In this document: one piece after another, positions 7,800 to 20,342 of the stretch | Numbering within the stretch: position 1 is the stretch's first letter | Layout: every line of letters starts with the position of its first letter | Virus record (IMG/VR): IMGVR_UViG_3300031673_000318 | Location: 1 to 31,208 of that record | Origin: a virus | Taxonomy: Duplodnaviria; Caudoviricetes | Direction: 5' to 3' (one strand) | Length of the DNA: 31,208 nucleotides | Translations under genes and position numbers: made by a program | Notes under the pieces: generated by a model | The model's input: the letters and a program-made list of their open reading frames with translations, nothing else | Database searches by the model: none | What the model was told of the DNA's origin: nothing

Positions 7800-10238
7800 C
7801 TACTGTTTTACAAGTTCGGACGCCATTTGATGATATTTCGCAGGCGGGTCTTCCAGATAAAGTGTTGCGTTATTATTCTCGCGAATCGCCCACCATGTTT
7901 GGTCCCAAATCGGGTGTGATAGCACCTCCGGACGGTGGGATATCACGAACACCGATCCAAACTTTTGCTTTAACAGCGCAAAAATCGAGATAAGACCCTC
8001 TGTACCCAACGGGTCCAGGTTTCCAAACGGCTCGTCAACGATGAGCACGTTGGAGCTACTACCTGTGTAGAGCTCCTTCAAGTCGCGGAGGCCGAACAAA
8101 AAAGCGAGTCCAGCCTTGTGTCGTTCACCACCAGAAAGCAAGCTGCTGTTGGTAGACACTTCTTCGAGACGCCGACCAAGCCCAAACTGTAGGGAACCCT
8201 CCTGGTCTGTCAAGTGCAGCGATACATTTCTGTTTGGCCACAAAATGTCGGAGTACGCAGGAACTGTGCGCTCCGCTGCGTCGGACAAAATGGCATCGAA
8301 ACGATCCTGTTTCATACCCTTGCTGCCAAACGACTTGTGCAAAGCCTCTAGACAACGAATCTCAGCAATGAGGGCCTCCTGCTTGCGTAGGGTACGCTTG
8401 AGCACCTTCTCATGACGAAGCAGCTGCCGAAGCTCGTTCACACGCTCACGCAGATGAGCCTCATCACTACTTGCCTCCGCTATCTTAGTGGCTGCTCGCT
8501 TCAACCGGCTACGGAGCTCCCGCAACTTAGTTTCCACTTCCTGCATGTCACCACGAGGAAGCTGCTTGAGCTCCTCCAGCTTTTCTACGATGAATTTGCC
8601 CGTCTCGTAGCGGTCCCGGTACTTGTCTACAACGCGGCGCGCTTTTTCGCAGCGCTCCACCAAGTCATCCTTGCTGTCGGAAGGCATAGCCGCAAGCTCG
8701 GCTTCGATTTCTATGCGGCGTCGTGAAGTCTCAAGCTCAGCGGAAAGCCTGCGCTCCTTACCACTAAGTAGACGGATGTCCTCTGTCACCTCTTCTGGAG
8801 AACGCTTGGTCTGGAACATGGTCAAGCGGGAACGAATTCCCTCTGCATTTCGACCGTCGTTTATCTCTTTTTTCAAAACGTGCAGCCTCGAAGTGGTCTT
8901 CTGCAACTCGTCACGAAGCTGGGCAAGCTCGGTACGCTTGGCGTTAATTTCCTCTGCGGACAGATCGTAGGGACGTTTGCAATGTGGACACGCAGCATGG
9001 CGAAGCTCGGTGTCCAAATTTTTAACGTCGCGCTCTAGGGCTGCTTCGCGCAGCTTAGCTGCGTCCTGTTCCTCAACAAGCTCATCCAAAGGAGCCGTGG
9101 GCTCCGCAAGCCGCTGAAGTTTGATCATCAATCCCTGGCGCTCTTCTGCCTGTGGAAGCTCTACCTGGTTGAGGTAGGTAAGCTTCGTCTTTGTTTCTGT
9201 CAGGTCTTCTTGTATCTCTTCTGCATCTCGGTCGCTGAGTTTCTGTAACTGCGCCCGGAGAGCTTCACGCTTTTCTACCTTCTCCAGGTCAGACTGCGCC
9301 GAAGCATACTCCGCATTAAGATTGTCGTACTTACGCTTCCAACGGTCAACGTCTTTCTGGGTGATGTCCTTTGGGTGGTCGAACGTCTTGACCAGGTCGC
9401 TGCCCTTGAACCGAGACATTGTTTGTCTACGCCCAGACGTCCGCTGCTGCAGCTTCGAGTGTAGAGAAGACACCTCGGTGTACTCATCGGTGTCCTCTGA
9501 GTTTTCGTCCTTGAGATGCTCCAACATTATTTCTGCTGCTTCGTGGTCAGCCTCGAGGTCTACCAAATCTGGCATCGAAAAGATTTTCTGTTTAACCTCT
9601 CGAAGCTCGTTGCTCACCTGCGCGAAGTCGGACATCGAAGTCTCGTGCATAGAGAGCATCCGCTTGGCCAACACGTACAACTCGTCGTAAATGTCCAGGT
9701 CGAACATCACTGTCAACCGCTTACGTCGCTCGAACTCTTTGCCATGAATCATGACATTGTTGAGCTCTTGCACCAAGTAGATAAGGTTGAAGAAGGTGGT
9801 TTCGTCAAGTGATAGCAGCCCTTCACGGATCCACTTGTGAGGTGCACGTGAAGCGTCTATAGGGAGGACGTTCTGGCCCGTCTCTCTATCGATCACCATC
9901 ACTTTATTGTTGAACCGGTGGTGCTGGCGGTACTGCCGTATCTCGTAAGGGTGCCCGCCAACACGCAACTTCAGGGTGGCCGACATGTCGGCCCCGCTAA
10001 ACAAGTTGACGATATCGGATTTATGATCACCGCGCCGCTGGTCCCGCTTGCCCCCTTTACCTACCTGCAACTGTGCAAACACCTCGAAGATGGAAGACTT
10101 CCCCGCACCCAGAAAACCACCATCATCCATGTTCAACCCACGCACCAACACGAGTCCCTGATTCGCCAACGGGAAGCTGCACTTCCGGTAGATGTAGGCG
10201 TTCTCGAACTCCAGCGACTCGTATTCAATGAAGGGCAT
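7800..10238 (-). CDS. sbcC: SbcC/Rad50/gp46-like SMC-family ATPase
   Basis: Walker A GAGKSS, long coiled coils with central zinc hook CPHC, signature LSGGE, Walker B LIVDEP, H-loop ISH. Confidence 0.93.
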   Translation of the reverse strand: MPFIEYESLEFENAYIYRKCSFPLANQGLVLVRGLNMDDGGFLGAGKSSIFEVFAQLQVGKGGKRDQRRGDHKSDIVNLFSGADMSATLKLRVGGHPYEIRQYRQHHRFNNKVMVIDRETGQNVLPIDASRAPHKWIREGLLSLDETTFFNLIYLVQELNNVMIHGKEFERRKRLTVMFDLDIYDELYVLAKRMLSMHETSMSDFAQVSNELREVKQKIFSMPDLVDLEADHEAAEIMLEHLKDENSEDTDEYTEVSSLHSKLQQRTSGRRQTMSRFKGSDLVKTFDHPKDITQKDVDRWKRKYDNLNAEYASAQSDLEKVEKREALRAQLQKLSDRDAEEIQEDLTETKTKLTYLNQVELPQAEERQGLMIKLQRLAEPTAPLDELVEEQDAAKLREAALERDVKNLDTELRHAACPHCKRPYDLSAEEINAKRTELAQLRDELQKTTSRLHVLKKEINDGRNAEGIRSRLTMFQTKRSPEEVTEDIRLLSGKERRLSAELETSRRRIEIEAELAAMPSDSKDDLVERCEKARRVVDKYRDRYETGKFIVEKLEELKQLPRGDMQEVETKLRELRSRLKRAATKIAEASSDEAHLRERVNELRQLLRHEKVLKRTLRKQEALIAEIRCLEALHKSFGSKGMKQDRFDAILSDAAERTVPAYSDILWPNRNVSLHLTDQEGSLQFGLGRRLEEVSTNSSLLSGGERHKAGLAFLFGLRDLKELYTGSSSNVLIVDEPFGNLDPLGTEGLISIFALLKQKFGSVFVISHRPEVLSHPIWDQTWWAIRENNNATLYLEDPPAKYHQMASELVKQ

Positions 10239-10241
10239 AGG

Positions 10242-11384
10242 CTACCAGCTTTTGATGAGCTTCATTGTACGGAAAGTAGCTGCTTCAAGCAGTGCAATAG
10301 AATCGGTAGAGTACAACTTGGTGCGCTCTAACACGGTGCAGTAGTCGTCAAGAATGAGTGGTAAACTCTCCGTCGACTGTGGCTTACGCGCAGTGACACC
10401 CTTGAGCAGCCACATTTTTCCTGGGTCGCACAAGGCATCTTTGTCAATCCACGAGTAGAACAGCTGCTGGAACGTCTCGAGCACGCACTGTGTAAAGTAG
10501 CCTGGATTGGTTACGTGTTGGAGTGCCTGCAGCGCCATCGGCAGGTTGCCTGCTACCACAGCACCCACGTAGCGTCTGATGACCTCGGAAGTCTGCAGTT
10601 CGGTCGACTGCGCTACCACCTTGGTGAGTAGCTCCTGCCAGTTGGATGTCTCGCCTTTCGCAGCTTCAGCGTGATTGATAACCTTGCTGAGCAGCCCGAG
10701 GGCATCACGAAGATGCCCATCGCTAGCGGTAGCAATTTGCAAGCACAGCTTCTTCAGCATATCATTGGGAGGTTGAAAGCCTTCCTTGACGGCGATCTGA
10801 TACACACGCTTCGCCACGGCTTCTGTAGGCAGCGGCTCGAGCGAAAAAATCTCTCCACGGCTACGAATGGTGGAGGGTAGCTTCTCGAAGTTGGTGGTGC
10901 ACAGAATGTAGCGTGTGCGCCGAGGTGGATCCTCCAGCATCTTGAGCATCGCCTGGAAAGCAGCACCTGTAATCTGATGTGCTTCATCCAGGATGAACAC
11001 CCGAAAGTTGTACCGAGGTGCTTGAGGAGCGATGGACGCTAAGCGGCGAATCTCATCAATGCCACCATGCAGTGCTACGTTCAACTCTGTCACGTCGGGA
11101 TGTTCAGACCTACCCAACAATACGGGTTTCATCTGCTTGCAGCTAGAGCACTCCCCGCAAGGTTCAATGCCGCTGGGTTTCTGACAGTTGATGTAGTAGG
11201 CTACGAGACGCGCCAGCGTTGTTTTACCTGCACTGTACGGACCATGAAAAATCAACACAGGGTCGATTCTCTTGTTCATGATCATGCCACGCAGACTGTC
11301 TACTACCTCTACTTGCCCCACCATCTCAGCGAATGCTTTAGGACGCCACTTCGCTGCTAGATGCAAGTTATCCTTGTTCATCAT
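10242..11384 (-). CDS. dnaX: DNA polymerase III gamma/tau-like clamp-loader ATPase (gamma length)
   Basis: KWRPKAFAEMVGQ, Walker A GPYSAGKTT, zinc site C...CGECSSC, Walker B ILDEAH, LPSTIRSR, GHLRDA. Confidence 0.92.
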   Translation of the reverse strand: MMNKDNLHLAAKWRPKAFAEMVGQVEVVDSLRGMIMNKRIDPVLIFHGPYSAGKTTLARLVAYYINCQKPSGIEPCGECSSCKQMKPVLLGRSEHPDVTELNVALHGGIDEIRRLASIAPQAPRYNFRVFILDEAHQITGAAFQAMLKMLEDPPRRTRYILCTTNFEKLPSTIRSRGEIFSLEPLPTEAVAKRVYQIAVKEGFQPPNDMLKKLCLQIATASDGHLRDALGLLSKVINHAEAAKGETSNWQELLTKVVAQSTELQTSEVIRRYVGAVVAGNLPMALQALQHVTNPGYFTQCVLETFQQLFYSWIDKDALCDPGKMWLLKGVTARKPQSTESLPLILDDYCTVLERTKLYSTDSIALLEAATFRTMKLIKSW

Positions 11385-12447
11385 TGTCCTGTACCTGGTA
11401 TCTGTCTGGAAGTTCTACAGTCACGCCTGCTGTTTTTGCCAACTTTATGGCAATCCGCCATGCCAACGGGTACAAATCTTCTGGAAGGTGGGCTCTCTCC
11501 AACGCTGTTTCAAGATCATCAAAAATTCCCACCGTGACCATTTGTTGGTCGCGATCCTGGCGACGCTCAAGCGACACCACACTAGGATGAAATTCAACGT
11601 TCAGTGGCAGAGCGTTTTCGGGAAAAGGACCCTCTGGACGAAACTGGATCAGCGCTTCCTCAGGAGGAGGCCAATCCTCGAGTTCCTCAGTAACGATACG
11701 AAGAGGGATGGACGGAACAGGAACAAATTCGGGATCTGCTGGGCGGTTGGTATCAACAATGAGCACGCCCTTTTCCGCGACCTCGTCAAAACGGGTTTGG
11801 TGCGGCGACCCAGAGTACCACGCGCAATCCAGTAACGACTGGCAGATGTGCATGTCGCCCATCGCCCAGTAAGTCACAGAAGGAAGGTTGTTGTCGATAC
11901 GGATTTGGTTCGCCTTGGTGATGCTCAAACCAACGTCCGTTTTACAGCCCTGCACTGCTTCATGAAGAACAACTACTACCGGTAAATCCGGGTTGGTGCA
12001 GTAGTCCTCCAGCAATGCCTGCACAATCAAGAAAAGTTCCTGGTCCATCCATCCCTGGTAAGGCATTAGCACCAGGTAGCAACCGAAGCGTTCGTACACA
12101 CTGGGCTCACCATCGTGAACGAGGTGATTCCCTAAGCGCTGTGCGAAGGCGGAGAGGTAACTCAAACAGGTGTCGCCAACTTCCACAGAACGCTTGTCGT
12201 GATTACCGCTGATCATCACAACTGGTACACGGCACTCAGCGAGCCACTCCGACAGGAGCAGGCGCTCAGCGTGTGTAATATCACGTCGGTCGTAGATATC
12301 CCCCGCTACTACTATGAAATCGACCTCACGGTCCTCCGCAATATTCTGGATATGGCGAAGGCACGCCTTTGCACGGCCCAGATAAAACTGGCTGAACCGA
12401 CGCAGAGCGTTGAGGTGCAAATCAGAGGTGTGTAAAAACGTTGGCAT
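11368..12447 (-). CDS. sbcD: SbcD/Mre11/gp47-like metallophosphoesterase nuclease
   Basis: LHTSDLH, AGDIYD, GNHD, LHE, MGDMH, YSGSP motifs; near sbcC. Confidence 0.93.
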   Translation of the reverse strand: MPTFLHTSDLHLNALRRFSQFYLGRAKACLRHIQNIAEDREVDFIVVAGDIYDRRDITHAERLLLSEWLAECRVPVVMISGNHDKRSVEVGDTCLSYLSAFAQRLGNHLVHDGEPSVYERFGCYLVLMPYQGWMDQELFLIVQALLEDYCTNPDLPVVVVLHEAVQGCKTDVGLSITKANQIRIDNNLPSVTYWAMGDMHICQSLLDCAWYSGSPHQTRFDEVAEKGVLIVDTNRPADPEFVPVPSIPLRIVTEELEDWPPPEEALIQFRPEGPFPENALPLNVEFHPSVVSLERRQDRDQQMVTVGIFDDLETALERAHLPEDLYPLAWRIAIKLAKTAGVTVELPDRYQVQDNDEQG

Positions 12448-12460
12448 ACTACCGTGGTGC

Positions 12461-12709
12461 TTACAGGTCTACTGGACGGACGGTCGTCCTCTTGTTACCC
12501 ACACAGCGCAAGGCGGAATCGAGCATCATCTGGGTGAACTTTTTCGCGAGGGAATCCGCGAGGGTACCGTCGACACGGAGACCGATGGAACTGAAGTACT
12601 CCTTCACCTTGGATGCGGTGATGACCTTCTTCCCGTGCTCCTCGAAGAAATTTCCTGTGGCTTTCCTCATCTGCATCTCATCTAGAACTTTTCTTTTCTT
12701 TTCTGCCAT
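12461..12709 (-). CDS. Prokaryotic-type histone-fold protein with basic N-terminal extension
   Basis: Good SD (AGGAGAG). VITASKVKEYF (alpha1), LRVDG (L1), a long alpha2, then NKRTTVRPVDL carrying the histone R-x-T-x-x-x-x-D signature, as in bacterial Bd0055-like histones. Confidence 0.85.
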   Translation of the reverse strand: MAEKKRKVLDEMQMRKATGNFFEEHGKKVITASKVKEYFSSIGLRVDGTLADSLAKKFTQMMLDSALRCVGNKRTTVRPVDL

Positions 12710-12724
12710 GACTCTCTCCTTTGT

Positions 12725-13768
12725 TCAGGCTTCTTCTGTACACTGTTTCAGGTACACTGTTGAGTGGCTGAAACGTAGCGCTTTCCATTTTGCCCATGGA
12801 GCGTCACCACGCATCAGCGAGCGAATGTGAGGGTTTAAAACGGTACCATCTTGATACAAAGCGACGGTACCATTCAAGGTGTTCAAGTAACTGAGTAGTA
12901 TGTGTGTGCCGTCGAGATCGAGCGCTCCTATGCCCTCGAAAGGAGGGTCCACCCAGAAAAGGGTGTGCGGGGCGTCATTGATCTGCAGCACTTTTTCAAT
13001 CGTATTATGCTCTATCTGCACACGGTACAGGCGGCTATGCAGCTGCGGCAGAACCGGGTCTACGCTACGCAGCGCAGCCATTACTTTATCAGAGGTGGTA
13101 TCGGGCAGTGTCTCCTGTGCAGGAGCGAGCTCCACCGCAGGGAACGCGTCACGCATGTAGCAGTACCACGCATACGCAGCTAACACAGCATCCCGGTCAT
13201 TCTGCTCTTCCCACACTGCAAACAGGTGGGAAGTCAGGAAGGAGTTGGTCGGGGGGACGAGTTGGCTGATCAGGTAAAACCAACTGAAAGAGGATGGATC
13301 GCGCAACGTATGGAAAAGGGTAATAGCAGCCCGAGCGTAGTCGTTGAATACCTCTACTGGAGCGGGTTCTCGAGCCATCAGAAGAGGCGCCCGTCCACCA
13401 AACACCTCCACGTACACTTGACAATCTGGGAGCGCCTGCGCGACTTCACGTAGAGGGCTGTCCTCGGGACGTCCTGCGTATGAAGGCAGTCCCGCTATAG
13501 GAGCACTCCAATCCTGAAGTGACTCATATTCGTAGAGGAAGACATAGCAGCCTAAACCGCGCAGCAGAAGCGCTACTTCTTTGAGATCATCACGCTCCCA
13601 CCGAAACTTGTAGAGCCCTGGCGCTAACGCGTCGAACGGTAGAGCACGGTTCCGCAAACTTGGCGCAGCTGTGATGAGTAGTACCCCGTAGGTACCATCA
13701 GCATGGCGTCGTACTAGCAGAAAAACCGAGCTAAATACGTCCGTAATAGATGATAATCCTCTAGCCAT
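12725..13768 (-). CDS. Dam-like (D12 class) DNA adenine methyltransferase, divergent, with N-terminal extension
   Basis: YVEVFGG (motif I), EVFND (motif II), LFHTLRD, FWVDPPF (motif IV, F for Y); start overlaps the recA stop (TAATG). Confidence 0.75.
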   Translation of the reverse strand: MARGLSSITDVFSSVFLLVRRHADGTYGVLLITAAPSLRNRALPFDALAPGLYKFRWERDDLKEVALLLRGLGCYVFLYEYESLQDWSAPIAGLPSYAGRPEDSPLREVAQALPDCQVYVEVFGGRAPLLMAREPAPVEVFNDYARAAITLFHTLRDPSSFSWFYLISQLVPPTNSFLTSHLFAVWEEQNDRDAVLAAYAWYCYMRDAFPAVELAPAQETLPDTTSDKVMAALRSVDPVLPQLHSRLYRVQIEHNTIEKVLQINDAPHTLFWVDPPFEGIGALDLDGTHILLSYLNTLNGTVALYQDGTVLNPHIRSLMRGDAPWAKWKALRFSHSTVYLKQCTEEA

Positions 13769-15057
13769 TAAAACGATTCGTCGAAGCTAAGGTCAGCGTG
13801 ATCTTCCTGCTTACTCTTGTTGACAGGTTTTTTGCCAACCTTGCGTCGGTTAACGCGGGTTTCTTCGTACTCCGCAGCTTCATCTGCTACCTGCTGTTTG
13901 AGGTCTTCTTCGTCGTTGTCGTCTACTTCGTCTGGAACGTCGTAATCGGCATCGTAGAAGTAGGTAGACTCGTTACTTTTCTCGAAGTAGGTGCGGTACG
14001 TTTCGTTCTCCCGCAACATAGCAAAGCACATAGCACGAAAGTCTGGATGCTCCACTGTGCGACGGAAGTCACCCCAACTGAGTATCTTGTTATCGTACCC
14101 CTCCAAATGGATTTTCTGCTTACCCGCACGAATCTCGAGGAGACCCAGGTGTTTCAGGAAGTAGAAAGCGTCGTAGGACTTGTCCAACCCGCGCCCAAGC
14201 ATGAGACGCATATCTGTGCTGCGAAACGGTGGGAACGCTTTGTTCTTGGTCGTTCGCCAGATGACAGGTACCGTCTGAACACCGATCTTGTCGGGCTCTA
14301 CACGCTTCACAGAGGAGCGCACTTTGTACCCGGGCCAGAATCGAAGTGCTTTGCCACCAGATTCGTGTTGGGGAGCTCCATAGCCCCCAATGTTGGTACG
14401 CATCTGGTTAGTGCCGATGAGCAATGCACCACGTCTTCGCAGGCGCGGAACTACGCGTTTGAGGAAGTAGCTGTGCATCCGGGCTTCGTCAGCAATCCGG
14501 CCACCGTCACCGACCTCATCTACCTCTTCACTACCCATCCCTGCGAAGCTATCCACCAAGAAAAGCATCCGAGGTGGACCGTCGTCCACGATAGGCATCT
14601 TGCTAAGCACACGAAGGATATGACGGTAGACCGCTTCTCCGGTATCTGGTTGCGTGTAGAAGAATCCTGGACGCTCGATGGTTTTTTTGCCATCTTTGAA
14701 CTTGACTTTGTAGTTTAGGTCGACGCCCATCGTACGCATGTAGACGGGATCTGACCCCGCTTCAGGGTCGTACAGGCAAGCTGGAATATTTATCAACTGA
14801 GAGCTAGCCAGGATGGAAGTGAGCAGAGTAGATTTACCACTCCCCTCCGGACCGAAGGTGGTCCCCATCAAGCCTGGCTTGAAGCCGCCACCAGTAATCA
14901 AGTCCAAGGAAAGGCTTCCGGTAGAGAGCACATCTTTTACGCGCTGTCCTTGCCGTAAGTTGATGCAGTCGAGCTCCTCCACCTCGTCAAAAGCGGCAGA
15001 AGCTGCTTCCGCAGGATGCACTATCTCTATCTTTAGCTTGTCTTTCTTTTTGGACAT
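13768..15057 (-). CDS. recA: RecA/UvsX recombinase with acidic C-terminal tail
   Basis: STGSLSLDLITGGG, Walker A GPEGSGKST, Walker B FLVDS, NQMR, SGGKALRF, KNK. ATG at 15057 with SD GAGG preferred over 15144. Confidence 0.93.
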   Translation of the reverse strand: MSKKKDKLKIEIVHPAEAASAAFDEVEELDCINLRQGQRVKDVLSTGSLSLDLITGGGFKPGLMGTTFGPEGSGKSTLLTSILASSQLINIPACLYDPEAGSDPVYMRTMGVDLNYKVKFKDGKKTIERPGFFYTQPDTGEAVYRHILRVLSKMPIVDDGPPRMLFLVDSFAGMGSEEVDEVGDGGRIADEARMHSYFLKRVVPRLRRRGALLIGTNQMRTNIGGYGAPQHESGGKALRFWPGYKVRSSVKRVEPDKIGVQTVPVIWRTTKNKAFPPFRSTDMRLMLGRGLDKSYDAFYFLKHLGLLEIRAGKQKIHLEGYDNKILSWGDFRRTVEHPDFRAMCFAMLRENETYRTYFEKSNESTYFYDADYDVPDEVDDNDEEDLKQQVADEAAEYEETRVNRRKVGKKPVNKSKQEDHADLSFDESF

Positions 15058-15064
15058 GGTACCT

Positions 15065-15412
15065 CTACAAAGGCAAGCCGACGAGCTTGCGCAGAGTTTC
15101 GTAAGTAGCCATCCCTCGATGACGACCAACTTCGCGGCCACCACGGTAAAACCGTACTTGAGGAACGTACGCAGTACCCAGCTGTGTGGCTGCTGTAGGG
15201 TCGTCTACAAGGGACACCCTAGCAATGTAGAGCAGTAAACGTCGGTGACGGATGAAGCCAAGTAGAGACTCCTCAAGTTGACTACACAATGTACTTTCAT
15301 TGCTAATCAACAAAAAGAATTCGACGTCGAGATCTCGCAGTGCCAAAGCAGCATCCCAAGAAATTGGGAAAACTTTCCCGGCAAAGTCTCGAATGCTTCT
15401 ACCAAGCAACAC
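15065..15412 (-). CDS. Thioredoxin-fold protein lacking CxxC
   Basis: C-terminal TAYVPQVRFYRGGREVGRHRG matches the Trx cis-Pro/beta-hairpin pattern; only one Cys (STLC); fills the gap between ssb and recA. Confidence 0.6.
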   Translation of the reverse strand: MLLGRSIRDFAGKVFPISWDAALALRDLDVEFFLLISNESTLCSQLEESLLGFIRHRRLLLYIARVSLVDDPTAATQLGTAYVPQVRFYRGGREVGRHRGMATYETLRKLVGLPL

Positions 15413-15428
15413 CCGTCACCACACGCTA

Positions 15429-16634
15429 CTACCACCCCGAGGGGTCGTCCTCTTCCACTGCTTTAGTAGTAACAGTGGAAGAGGTCTTTTCACTGGGAGA
15501 GTCGCCCCAGCCGTCGTCACTGAAAAGGGTGTCATCGAATTCGGGACCGCTTTCACTGCTGTCACCGCTGTCGGCGCTAGCAGCAGTCTCATCTCCCCAC
15601 GCGTCATCGGTGCTGGCAGATTTACCGTTGCCAGAGTCGTCACCCCACGCGTCATCGGTGCTGGCAGCAACGCTTGTCTCGCCCCATCCTTCGTCAGAAG
15701 GAGCAGACTCTAATGGCTCCGATGGCGAGTCGTCGTCGCCCCACGCTTCGTCTTCCGCTGGAGGAGGTGGGGCAGCCTTAGCTTTAGCTGGTCGTCCACT
15801 ACCAGTGGGCCTCCTGGATTGCTTCGCAGACTCAGAGTCACCCCAGCTACCTGAACGGTCGTTGCCAGGCTCATCGCGGCTTGCAACTACCTCGATCACT
15901 TCTTCAAGACGAGCGTACAGTCCAAGACGCTTCAGGTCTGCGCGGATCGTGTCGGGATCTTTGACCTCGACAATTTCATCGAACGGCGTGGGCTCACCCT
16001 TAAAGATGTTGCCCCCACCCTTCATCATCCAGATACCCTTTTCCTCGTCAAACTTCACAGGCATTTTGTTGCCCTGGTAGAAGCGTACGCGGTCCTTCGG
16101 GTCTTGAGCTTTTTCGTCGTAGTGCCACAGAACGGAGGTGCCCTTTTGGGGGTCATCCAATTCGCAGCCCATGATGTCACCGATCATCGCCAGGTCGTTC
16201 TTTCCATATTTGTTGGTGAACAGGACGCCGAAGACGTCCTTCCGACCTTCTTTGGCTGCGGTGATGTCGAAAGCTTCGATGTAGTAACGGAAGGACCCAA
16301 GCAGACGAAGCTCCTGAGGAAGGCTGTCGTCTTGGAAATCGGCGCACAGGGGGCACGACGCATCAGGCCCCTTCCTAAATTGTCCGGTGTCCCAGTCAAA
16401 ATCCGGGCACACCTCATAGAAACCGCTCTTGCTTCCGTCTTTGCGCTTGAACCGCACATAATGCTGGAAGATGGTAAAAATACCACCGACCAAGCGGATC
16501 TCCTTCGGTTTGCCCCTCTTCGGCTTCTCGAGGTAGTCAAGCTTCTGGTGCCACTTATCTGCGTAAGTTCCGCCACCAGGGGCATTGGAAATGGGACGAC
16601 GTCCCCGTGGATATGGTGACTTTTTGCTGGCCAT
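15429..16634 (-). CDS. gp32-like single-stranded DNA-binding protein with long acidic WG-repeat tail
   Basis: SD AAGGAG; IRL, H, C...CPLC zinc pattern of gp32-type SSBs; ~140 aa acidic disordered tail; next to recA. Confidence 0.75.
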   Translation of the reverse strand: MASKKSPYPRGRRPISNAPGGGTYADKWHQKLDYLEKPKRGKPKEIRLVGGIFTIFQHYVRFKRKDGSKSGFYEVCPDFDWDTGQFRKGPDASCPLCADFQDDSLPQELRLLGSFRYYIEAFDITAAKEGRKDVFGVLFTNKYGKNDLAMIGDIMGCELDDPQKGTSVLWHYDEKAQDPKDRVRFYQGNKMPVKFDEEKGIWMMKGGGNIFKGEPTPFDEIVEVKDPDTIRADLKRLGLYARLEEVIEVVASRDEPGNDRSGSWGDSESAKQSRRPTGSGRPAKAKAAPPPPAEDEAWGDDDSPSEPLESAPSDEGWGETSVAASTDDAWGDDSGNGKSASTDDAWGDETAASADSGDSSESGPEFDDTLFSDDGWGDSPSEKTSSTVTTKAVEEDDPSGW

Positions 16635-18927: not shown

Positions 18928-19401
18928 CTAGTACCCGCTACGCTGGCGGTGATAGCGCCCACGGGGCCTGTCGTTGCGACCAGGAGACCTACGACGTCTT
19001 CCCCGTTGAGGACGTCGACCCTTCTCTAGTAGCATGATGTCGTACTCCACTCCAGAGTCACCAGAAGCAGAGCGGGCGATGGATCGAACAGCGTCCACGG
19101 TGTGCCCATCCTTACCGATGACCTGCCCTAAATCCTCCTCCTTGACATCCAACTCTATAATCACCAGACGACTTGCTCGGATAATGTTCACCCGGAGCTC
19201 CTTCGAATGGTTGGCAATACGTAATATGGAAAGCACAACGAGCGCTTCGATGCTGAGCTCACTGATGTCTTCAACTGAATCAATTTCGTTGTCCAGAAAC
19301 TCGGAAGCGCTCTGAAAACCGGCAGTACTCTGCGCGTCTGATCCTTTCTCTGTTGGCGTCTCGTCTGATGGAATCTCTTCGTGTTGGTCACGATCAGCCA
19401 T
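18928..19401 (-). CDS. khpA: KhpA-like KH-domain RNA-binding protein with acidic N-tail and Arg/Gly-rich C-tail
   Basis: IIELDVKEEDLGQVIGKDGHTVDAVRSIAR is the KhpA-type GxxG KH signature; SD AAAGGAAG before ATG at 19401. Confidence 0.8.
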   Translation of the reverse strand: MADRDQHEEIPSDETPTEKGSDAQSTAGFQSASEFLDNEIDSVEDISELSIEALVVLSILRIANHSKELRVNIIRASRLVIIELDVKEEDLGQVIGKDGHTVDAVRSIARSASGDSGVEYDIMLLEKGRRPQRGRRRRSPGRNDRPRGRYHRQRSGY

Positions 19402-19415
19402 GTCTCTTCCTTTCA

Positions 19416-20342
19416 CTAGTGGGACTCTAAGAACGATGCGAGGATGAATAGCTCGTGTTCCGACCTCTCCTGTGGTTGTCCTTCAATCTCTACCTTCCTA
19501 CTCAAAATTCCATCAATCGCGGGTGAGAAACAAACAGTACGCCAAGGGCAGTAGGTAGCATAGGAGTCAGAAGGTTCCACACAAAGACCACGTGGGATTC
19601 TTCCACTCGTTAAGCACTCCTCCGCGAGCTTAATGCGACCAAGTACGTCCTCGTAAATATGGCGGCTGATGGACACCTGCATAGGAAGCCACGTTTTCCA
19701 GGGTGTACCCCTATCTACATAGATGATAATTATCTTTTTCAGCTTTTCTGTTAAGCCGAAATCACTCAAGTGATCGTTGACGTAGTTGGCGTACGCGTTG
19801 ATCTGTAAGTAGTGCGACTCCTTAGGCTTGTTGGCTGCCTTGTACTCCCGAATCTTCTCCAGACTCGAGCCCTTGAAATCGATGAGGTAGTTGTCGGGGG
19901 TGCGCAGGATACCGTCAAGGTGCCCACTGAACGGATTGTCCTTCGTGCGCTTGATGGCGTACTCATGGTAAACCATTTCGCGGCCACAAGAACCACACAC
20001 CTGTATTCCTGTCTGATGCCGACGAATTACCTTGCAGTTGACACACACCCAGTTACCATGAAGCTGACCCTCGATAGCAAACCATTTCTGGAGCGCCAGG
20101 TGCAACGCGGTACCCATCCAGGCCGAGCTCTCTGCGATGAACGTCTCCTCCCTACGAGGACGCTTCCGTACAGGGAGGCGACGATAGATAACGTACGCTC
20201 GAGGACAAATTGGGAAGCTGCTCGCACGTATCTGAATGTACTCAGGGTGCTCTATCTTGCGCCGCATGTAGCGAATATCACCAAAGCTTTTGCGGATAGG
20301 AGCACTAATCCGCTCTGCGTTGGGAATGTCGAAGATGGACAA
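19416..20342 (-). CDS. Solo Cas4/AddB-like PD-(D/E)xK exonuclease with Fe-S cysteines and a zinc-ribbon insertion
   Basis: RASSFPICPR, GTALH, GHLDG...LIDFK, QINAY, C-terminal C...CPWRTVC; inserted CVNC...CGSC; SD GAGGAG before TTG. Confidence 0.8.
   Translation of the reverse strand: MSIFDIPNAERISAPIRKSFGDIRYMRRKIEHPEYIQIRASSFPICPRAYVIYRRLPVRKRPRREETFIAESSAWMGTALHLALQKWFAIEGQLHGNWVCVNCKVIRRHQTGIQVCGSCGREMVYHEYAIKRTKDNPFSGHLDGILRTPDNYLIDFKGSSLEKIREYKAANKPKESHYLQINAYANYVNDHLSDFGLTEKLKKIIIIYVDRGTPWKTWLPMQVSISRHIYEDVLGRIKLAEECLTSGRIPRGLCVEPSDSYATYCPWRTVCFSPAIDGILSRKVEIEGQPQERSEHELFILASFLESH

Follow-up and report, generated by a model that had tools for sequence, protein, structure and literature searches.

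Histones of the alpha3 group have a shortened alpha2 helix and an alpha3 of only 3 to 4 residues (Schwab et al. 2024, PMC11390915). Among its face-to-face (FtF) members, HLp wraps about 60 bp of DNA and rearranges the nucleoid of E. coli (Hu et al., bioRxiv 2025.05.08.652872), and HTkC also wraps about 60 bp, the alanine mutant of its R45 being a dimer (10.64898/2025.12.06.692711). The dimer histones of bacteria are described as lacking the FtF Arg/Asn pair (PMC11390915). For phages, the table of Liu et al. 2025 (hLife, PMC13681535) holds 106 rows of a class named VFFHFP. Its supplement lists gene 17 of contig L001 and gene 28 of contig L002 in this class. Both contigs carry a protein 100% identical to the one described here, and we infer by gene counting, not by sequence comparison, that these two numbers designate it. 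Genes of the G001, G002, G003, G007 and G008 records are listed in the supplement too, with matching coordinates for L018 and L019, and the table predicts a Bacteroidales host for L001. The histone class, like the protein itself, is on record there (VFFHFP, Caudoviricetes).

A tailed phage histone is therefore already in print and, since the published table holds the protein, would not surprise a specialist. Three points remain useful: in one subfamily the "tail" is mostly a predicted folded helix accompanied by a matching change in alpha2; the gene belongs to the core of a single jumbo-phage clade, in which it is passed on vertically; and the protein, being small and easily expressed, lends itself to bench work. 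The main text of Liu et al. (PMC13681535) contains no N-terminal helix and none of the words "neighbor", "synteny" and "jumbo". In the literature found, no printed description of the helix (hereafter alphaN) or of the gene order was encountered, and the alphaN subfamily is undescribed there, although the supplements of Liu et al. and Schwab et al. may show the helix.

The histone gene and its neighbourhood

The stretch of DNA analysed, called the window, comprises 31,208 nucleotides (IMG/VR record IMGVR_UViG_3300031673_000318). An ORF running from 12709 to 12461 on the minus strand encodes an 82-aa protein starting with MAEKKRK, which sequence, profile and model assign to the alpha3 FtF histones with an N-terminal helix. 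This ORF is a real gene. A Shine-Dalgarno (SD) site, AAAGGAG (12716..12722, minus strand), stands 6 nt ahead of its ATG, and AGGA is found 5' of the histone start in 9 of 10 related phage genes. Comparison with the 91%-identical copy of phage L007 gave an uncorrected pN/pS of 0.124, showing that the gene is under purifying selection. Calculated by part, again without correction, the ratio was 0.077 for the core and 0.49 for residues 10-27, where sites are few. The antisense ORFs overlapping the gene do not retain their open frame across relatives. No match to the protein was returned by Pfam or PHROGs, and just 3 of the 36 members of its family matched a histone Pfam, weakly.

Of eight neighbouring starts in the window only that of an SSB-like gene also has an SD site, the starts used for recA and the sigma factor being uncertain; sbcD, dnaX and sbcC have none. 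The strong ribosome site suggests high expression of the phage histone, which is likely an abundant nucleoid protein. Strong SD sites are rarely used by Bacteroidota and fit poorly with a Bacteroidales host for L001. Promoter and terminator counts were at chance level, no tRNA was found in the window and no RNA holder was listed.

The neighbouring genes given here with coordinates lie on the minus strand. The histone is located 15 nt past a DNA methyltransferase (MTase)-like gene (12725..13768; PHROG 56, E 3.5e-8) and 13 nt ahead of sbcD, encoding an Mre11-like nuclease (11368..12447; PHROG 100, E 1.5e-19), as a sequence-only reading of the window had proposed. Library matches identified a DnaX-like clamp loader (10242..11384), an sbcC/Rad50-like ATPase (7800..10238) and a RecA/UvsX-like recombinase (13768..15144). 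The window order is sigma-70, SSB-like, recA, MTase-like, histone, sbcD, dnaX, sbcC and ligase, with primase and RuvC further away. These genes make the window a block for phage replication and recombination, within which the histone may be co-transcribed with the recA, sbcD, dnaX and sbcC genes.

Some of these neighbours have features of their own. The 401-aa, putatively SSB-like protein (15429..16634), conserved in relatives, gave no Pfam or PHROG match; its C-terminal half is a long acidic region with repeated D/E-x-x-W-G units, and its SD site is strong. The MTase-like gene, without a Pfam match at E 0.1, is presumably degenerate, having FGGRAP where a glycine-rich SAM motif is usual, together with DPPF; a separate and clear D12 adenine MTase is carried by the related phage G001. 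Finally, 18928-19416 (minus strand) encodes a KhpA/B-type KH RNA-binding protein (E 5e-11), which in relatives is found near the sigma-70 gene.

Histone fold and N-terminal helix

The identification of a phage-encoded prokaryotic histone with a short alpha3, initially made from the letters alone, was upheld by profile and structure comparisons. Residues 28-81 matched 9QT0 (HLp of Leptospira perolatii) in a phmmer search of the PDB with an E-value of 9e-8, and the 36-sequence family profile retrieved HLp at 5e-15, HTkC at 1.4e-10 and HBb/Bd0055 at 3e-5. The AlphaFold2 model of the query is of moderate confidence only (mean pLDDT 74, pTM 0.53). In this model and in the alignment to HLp, the histone fold spans residues 28-82 (12464..12628, minus strand), with DSSP helices at 32-41 (alpha1) and 50-71 (alpha2) and a one-turn alpha3 of 3 residues at 79-81, consistent with the shortened alpha2 and alpha3 of the group. 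The model superposes on HLp with an rmsd of 0.8-1.0 Å (0.8-0.9 Å over 53-56 residues), on HTkC with 0.9-1.0 Å and on HBb/Bd0055 (8CMP, 8FVX) with 1.1-1.3 Å. Foldseek scores against HLp were modest (E 1.2e-3, Z 7.2) because the fold is so small; HMf chains reached Z 4.8-5.3 against 7.2-7.3 for HLp.

The residues that build the FtF tetramer are present (12467..12508, minus strand). R68, N72 and R74 correspond to HLp R49, N53 and R55, the HLp RD clamp to R74-D81, and HTkC R45 aligns with R68. The R-x-T-x-x-x-x-D motif recognised in the first reading is indeed found as R74-x-T76-x4-D81; its residues are R74-T75-T76-V-R-P-V-D81, with no strongly conserved K/R following the Arg. Among the 36 extension-bearing proteins, R68 is retained in all, T76 in 35, and N72, R74 and D81 in 34 each. 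The HLp DNA-contact residues A13, S14, K15, K17, G29, T56 and T57 are found as A32, S33, K34, K36, G48, T75 and T76, so that the alpha1 lysines for DNA binding are kept, whereas the contacts K21 and T27 are replaced by S40 and V46. Taken together, sequence and model place the phage protein among the FtF alpha3 histones and, by analogy with HLp and HTkC, these residues make a closed homotetramer likely.

Other histone types were considered and rejected. The Arg/Asn pair and the RxT motif are present and a C-terminal helix is absent, which excludes both the dimer histones and the "phage histones" of Schwab et al. (VTTHFP). The Bd0055-like type first suggested has accordingly been replaced by the FtF type on the basis of profile ranking, superposition and conservation of R68 and N72, the motif being RTT and not RKTxxxD; as for VTTHFP, the chain ends at D81-L82. 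An alpha3 of 3 residues does not agree with the full-length alpha3 of the archaeal nucleosomal (HMf) type. RNA polymerase delta was matched weakly by phmmer (E 0.08-0.2), but HLp scored far better, and histones were what the fold search returned.

The extension preceding the fold had been read as Lys/Arg-rich over 28 residues, a description that applies only to its start. Residues 1-28 contain 8 K/R and 5 D/E; within the extension proper, of 27 aa, there are 7 K/R and 5 D/E, a net charge of +2. The sole tail-like part is the basic patch KKRK (residues 4-7; 12689..12700, minus strand), residues 1-5 having a pLDDT below 50, while residues 8-27 hold 3 K/R against 4 D/E and are predicted to be mainly helical. 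The alphaN helix is predicted at residues 11-29 in the AlphaFold2 query model (12623..12679, minus strand), and its M14, K16 and F21 are invariant across the 8 closest proteins. The model of P0022, a protein 34% identical, has a helix at 8-26 with a mean pLDDT of 89 and a pTM of 0.70, both models having been built from nearly one alignment. The models thus predict that most of the extension is a folded helix and not a tail. The accompanying premise that bacterial FtF histones are mostly tail-less is contradicted by Schwab et al. 2024 (PMC11390915), where tails are called common and mostly basic; Liu et al. (PMC13681535) and Hu et al. (bioRxiv 2025.05.08.652872) word tail frequency differently from Schwab et al.

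To describe the family, 1.84 billion representatives were searched with a profile, yielding 124 matches. Proteins of more than 130 aa and 7 doublets were dropped and the first 8 proteins added, giving a 114-row alignment; 36 of its proteins, whose extensions looked helix-like, were grouped by visual inspection. P0039 and P0058, repeat-containing proteins without the histone motif, were false positives of this search, and we take P0032, P0082 and P0095 to have a hydrophobic N-terminus and an RRM-like segment followed by an FtF-like histone fold. No longer, fused histone forms were found among 7997 scored, which is weak evidence.

With 6 near-copies left out of the helix group, extension columns 14, 21 and 25 are hydrophobic in fractions of 0.83, 0.83 and 0.53, columns 12, 15, 16, 19 and 20 are rich in K/R (0.40-0.70), column 10 is mainly T/D/S/E and column 24 is acidic (0.87). 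An aromatic residue in the F21 region is found in 29 of the 36 helix-group proteins and in 4 of the 78 others, a count that is circular because the group was picked on the extension. Three lines of evidence are independent of the choice by eye: the P0022 model, a shift in alpha2 and a core-only tree. Comparing 31 helix-bearing proteins with 77 others, the hydrophobic fraction is 0.87 against 0.05 at position 55, 0.77 against 0.43 at position 59 (where HLp itself has an equivalent Tyr), 0.65 against 0.21 at position 63 and 0.71 against 0.06 at position 70. As the helix-group members are related, this shift counts as one evolutionary event and not as many. In the core-only tree, built on 55 columns and with unsettled bootstraps, a 93/97 branch sets apart 35 of the 36 proteins, accompanied by P0080, which has a similar extension, and P0117, which has none, P0019 lying outside. 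A single clade for 37 helix-bearing proteins was neither rejected by the AU test (p 0.196) nor demonstrated. These observations suggest a contact between alphaN and alpha2; in the predicted arrangement, alphaN docks on the alpha2 face formed by positions 55, 59, 63 and 70, with R15 and K16 facing outward.

Extensions in relatives range from 25 to 69 aa with 3 to 25 K/R. In some of them, true Lys-rich tails precede the helix, up to 69 aa and 25 K/R. The query and P0022 models both align, alphaN included, over 67-72 residues to H3 43-124, but weakly (Z 4.7-5.5, rmsd 3.3-4.9 Å, 10-16% identity).

Distribution and inheritance among phages

The histone gene immediately precedes sbcD in all 10 related phages (the window, L003, L007, L009, L054, L011, L012, L018, L019 and L059). 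The upstream side varies, the neighbour being MTase-like, a macro domain, HNH, recA or a short ORF. The MTase-like gene adjoins the histone in 5 of 9 assessable phages; it is absent from L011, L018 and L059, and in L012 an HNH gene is inserted between the two. Of the two neighbours named in the first reading, sbcD is therefore constant and the methyltransferase is not conserved. In G002, the histone's immediate upstream neighbour (L011:2172-2675, plus strand) has a weak Macro-domain match, just under the cut-off (E 2e-4). The frame of the HNH nuclease (L012:9320-10237, plus strand) enters the histone without a stop, the histone retaining its own AGGAG site.

In order to avoid selecting on the histone, sbcD was used as query. 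Among 35 sbcD loci, the histone is present at each of the 9 best-ranked, which represent 8 phages, and the other 26 have none within 3 kb. Among 71 recA loci, 7 have it, in the same phages as in the sbcD search. The histone is absent throughout 8 sister jumbo-phage records, 3 of which are at least 90% complete. Sister large phages (L061-L065, L069) retain recA...sbcD without it, in the order recA-X-Y-sbcD; in L062-L065 and L069 the slot holds two other, unrelated genes, one of them a conserved hypothetical gene of about 200 aa.

Seven relatives of the histone share 59-76% identity with it. Over 45 non-independent pairs, histone identity correlates with sbcD identity (Spearman 0.57) and with dnaX identity (0.64), and the histone tree recovers the three groups of the sbcD and dnaX tree. 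Trees and identities thus argue for vertical inheritance in one phage clade and, judging from these comparisons, the histone is a core gene of that jumbo-phage clade and was not lately acquired from a host. Helix-less FtF histones occur in three other phages (L014-L016), in other gene contexts and in records where sbcD gave no match.

A single member of the clade is complete so far, the 350-kb G001 (a 349,793-bp DTR virus record). Its gene order is that of the window, which supports a phage origin of the histone. It has 335 ORFs of at least 120 aa, of which 269 were scanned, and PolA, gyrase, topoisomerase IB, DnaB, RNR, ParB, a baseplate protein, a protein kinase, PP2C and GNAT were found. 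No HU/IHF was matched in G001, while G002 has both a histone and an HU/IHF gene, so that the histone does not just stand in for HU. The G001 protein kinase adjoins the PP2C phosphatase, and GNAT, topoisomerase IB, NAD synthase and NAPRTase genes are also present (side genes at L033:9808-12815, L039:5291-5746, L041:10491-11993 and L041-L042); the kinase, PP2C and GNAT could modify histone tails. An SNF2-family helicase of 1061 aa in G002 contains an intein (Hint and LAGLIDADG; L028:2858-6043, plus strand, equal to G002:C1:94857-98042), and with its last 55 or so residues it is hit by the profile of alpha3 histones (E 1.1e-7). This end is possibly a fusion of a remodeller with a histone fold, or a small gene read in frame; the protein had no match in the complete G001.

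Tubulin was not matched in 3 records of the clade. The INPHARED phages gave no match to the histone and no cultured member was found there. Two GTDB pattern scans provided no true relative (0/61 and 1/168, the latter hit being part of an unrelated large protein), which is weak evidence. No NCBI source is listed for any of 24 matches, and for the protein of the window itself no sources are given. The four-helix form, alphaN plus histone fold, has so far been seen only in metagenomic phage sequence. The Moraphages (PMC12619734) do not correspond to this clade, as they have an H1-like protein and PolB as marker whereas G001 has PolA.

Possible roles and relation to known histones

On balance we regard it as probable that the protein is a jumbo-phage FtF histone, likely a closed homotetramer, which wraps about 60 bp and compacts the phage's own replicating DNA. 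Modelled on HLp and HTkC, the tetramer would bind double-stranded DNA without sequence preference and act as a nucleoid protein in the infected cell, and alphaN may add stability or extra DNA contacts. The AGGA site in 9 of 10 phages, with none at sbcD, dnaX or sbcC, suggests that the histone is made in excess over its neighbours, as would an architectural protein. The role on replicating or recombining DNA put forward in the sequence-only reading fits the conserved place before sbcD, gene order being its one basis; gene order does not show which DNA the histone binds. Against the role proposed here, the sister jumbo phages do without a histone.

A protein binding DNA non-specifically would also reach host DNA, and HLp does reorganise the E. 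coli nucleoid. The phage histone could accordingly be pictured as a takeover factor, coating the host chromosome or mixing with a host FtF histone and dampening host transcription or defence. Host transcription probably matters to the phage, since no RNA polymerase family was matched among the scanned G001 ORFs, and the atlas neighbours include clusters in which Bdellovibrionota and Myxococcota, phyla with FtF histones, are the most frequent phyla. We nevertheless hold this function to be distinctly unlikely: the gene is inside the replication and recombination block in 10/10 phages and co-diverges with it, and the failure of the two GTDB scans to find the helix-bearing form points weakly in the same direction. 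The one unchanging neighbour, sbcD, raises another scenario, in which the histone is a dedicated partner or regulator of SbcCD or RecA that attaches to branched intermediates or to DNA ends, where it restrains or steers resection by the Mre11-like nuclease, the extra helix serving as a possible protein-binding surface. This appears improbable, given that the strong SD of the histone and its absence from sbcD, dnaX and sbcC suggest a large molar excess, that sister phages keep recA and sbcD around two unrelated genes, and that the whole block is syntenic, so that the adjacency may be plain inheritance.

Giant-virus histones offer a precedent for a virion core protein packaging capsid DNA (Marseilleviridae; introduction of Schwab et al., PMC11390915), with which the strong SD and the long basic tails of some relatives would agree. 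The gene is nonetheless found among replication genes, and in G001 it lies at about 163 kb against about 115 kb for the single baseplate match. Terminase-driven packaging in tailed phages, moreover, normally requires naked DNA, and we consider a virion role very improbable. As to assembly, the hydrophobic change on alpha2 extends as far as position 70, which is only two residues away from R68 and from N72, and alphaN might then block or remodel the tetramer, leaving an HBb-like DNA-bending dimer or a different assembly. That outcome we judge quite improbable: R68 is kept in 36/36 proteins, the chain ends D81-L82 as in HLp, where these residues make tetramer contacts, and the dimer histones of bacteria are those without residues of the R68/N72 type (PMC11390915). 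Going beyond the compacting homotetramer that we favour, one may envisage an undescribed four-helix FtF subfamily that builds phage chromatin, in which an H3-alphaN-like helix would stabilise the wrapped DNA, the variable Lys-rich tails would be substrates for the phage's kinase, phosphatase and GNAT, and the access of SbcCD and RecA would be controlled; in this full form the proposal is unlikely. The literature found reports no bench test of an FtF histone from a phage, for which this small protein is a candidate.

Compared with known systems, the protein shares with VFFHFP its occurrence in Caudoviricetes, the alpha3 fold and an N-terminal extension. VFFHFP is described with a Lys-rich tail of 5-40 aa (PMC13681535) whereas the extension here, at 27 aa within that length range, is basic only at residues 4-7 and predicted to be helical, and the class also takes in the helix-less phage histones of other contexts (L014-L016). 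The "phage histones" named by Schwab et al. 2024 (VTTHFP) are likewise phage-encoded alpha3 histones, but have a C-terminal tetramerisation helix and no RxTxxxD, whereas in the query the motif is present and the chain stops just behind it. HBb/Bd0055 has the alpha3 fold but is a DNA-bending dimer without the FtF Arg/Asn pair. HTkC (9F2C), close by profile and by the equivalence of R45 and R68, is archaeal, cellular and without extension. HLp (9QT0-9QT2; Hu et al. 2025) is 45% identical over 53 residues, with tetramer residues and RD clamp kept, but is a cellular protein of 63 aa in which some 7 residues at the N-terminus are unresolved and alphaN is lacking, and its K21 and T27 are not shared. 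In both models, the extra helix falls on the alphaN of H3, a weak match and at most a convergent arrangement. If the phage histone wraps DNA, H3 would no longer be the only case in which a helix of the alphaN kind arose, and histone-based chromatin would extend to the replication programme of bacterial viruses.
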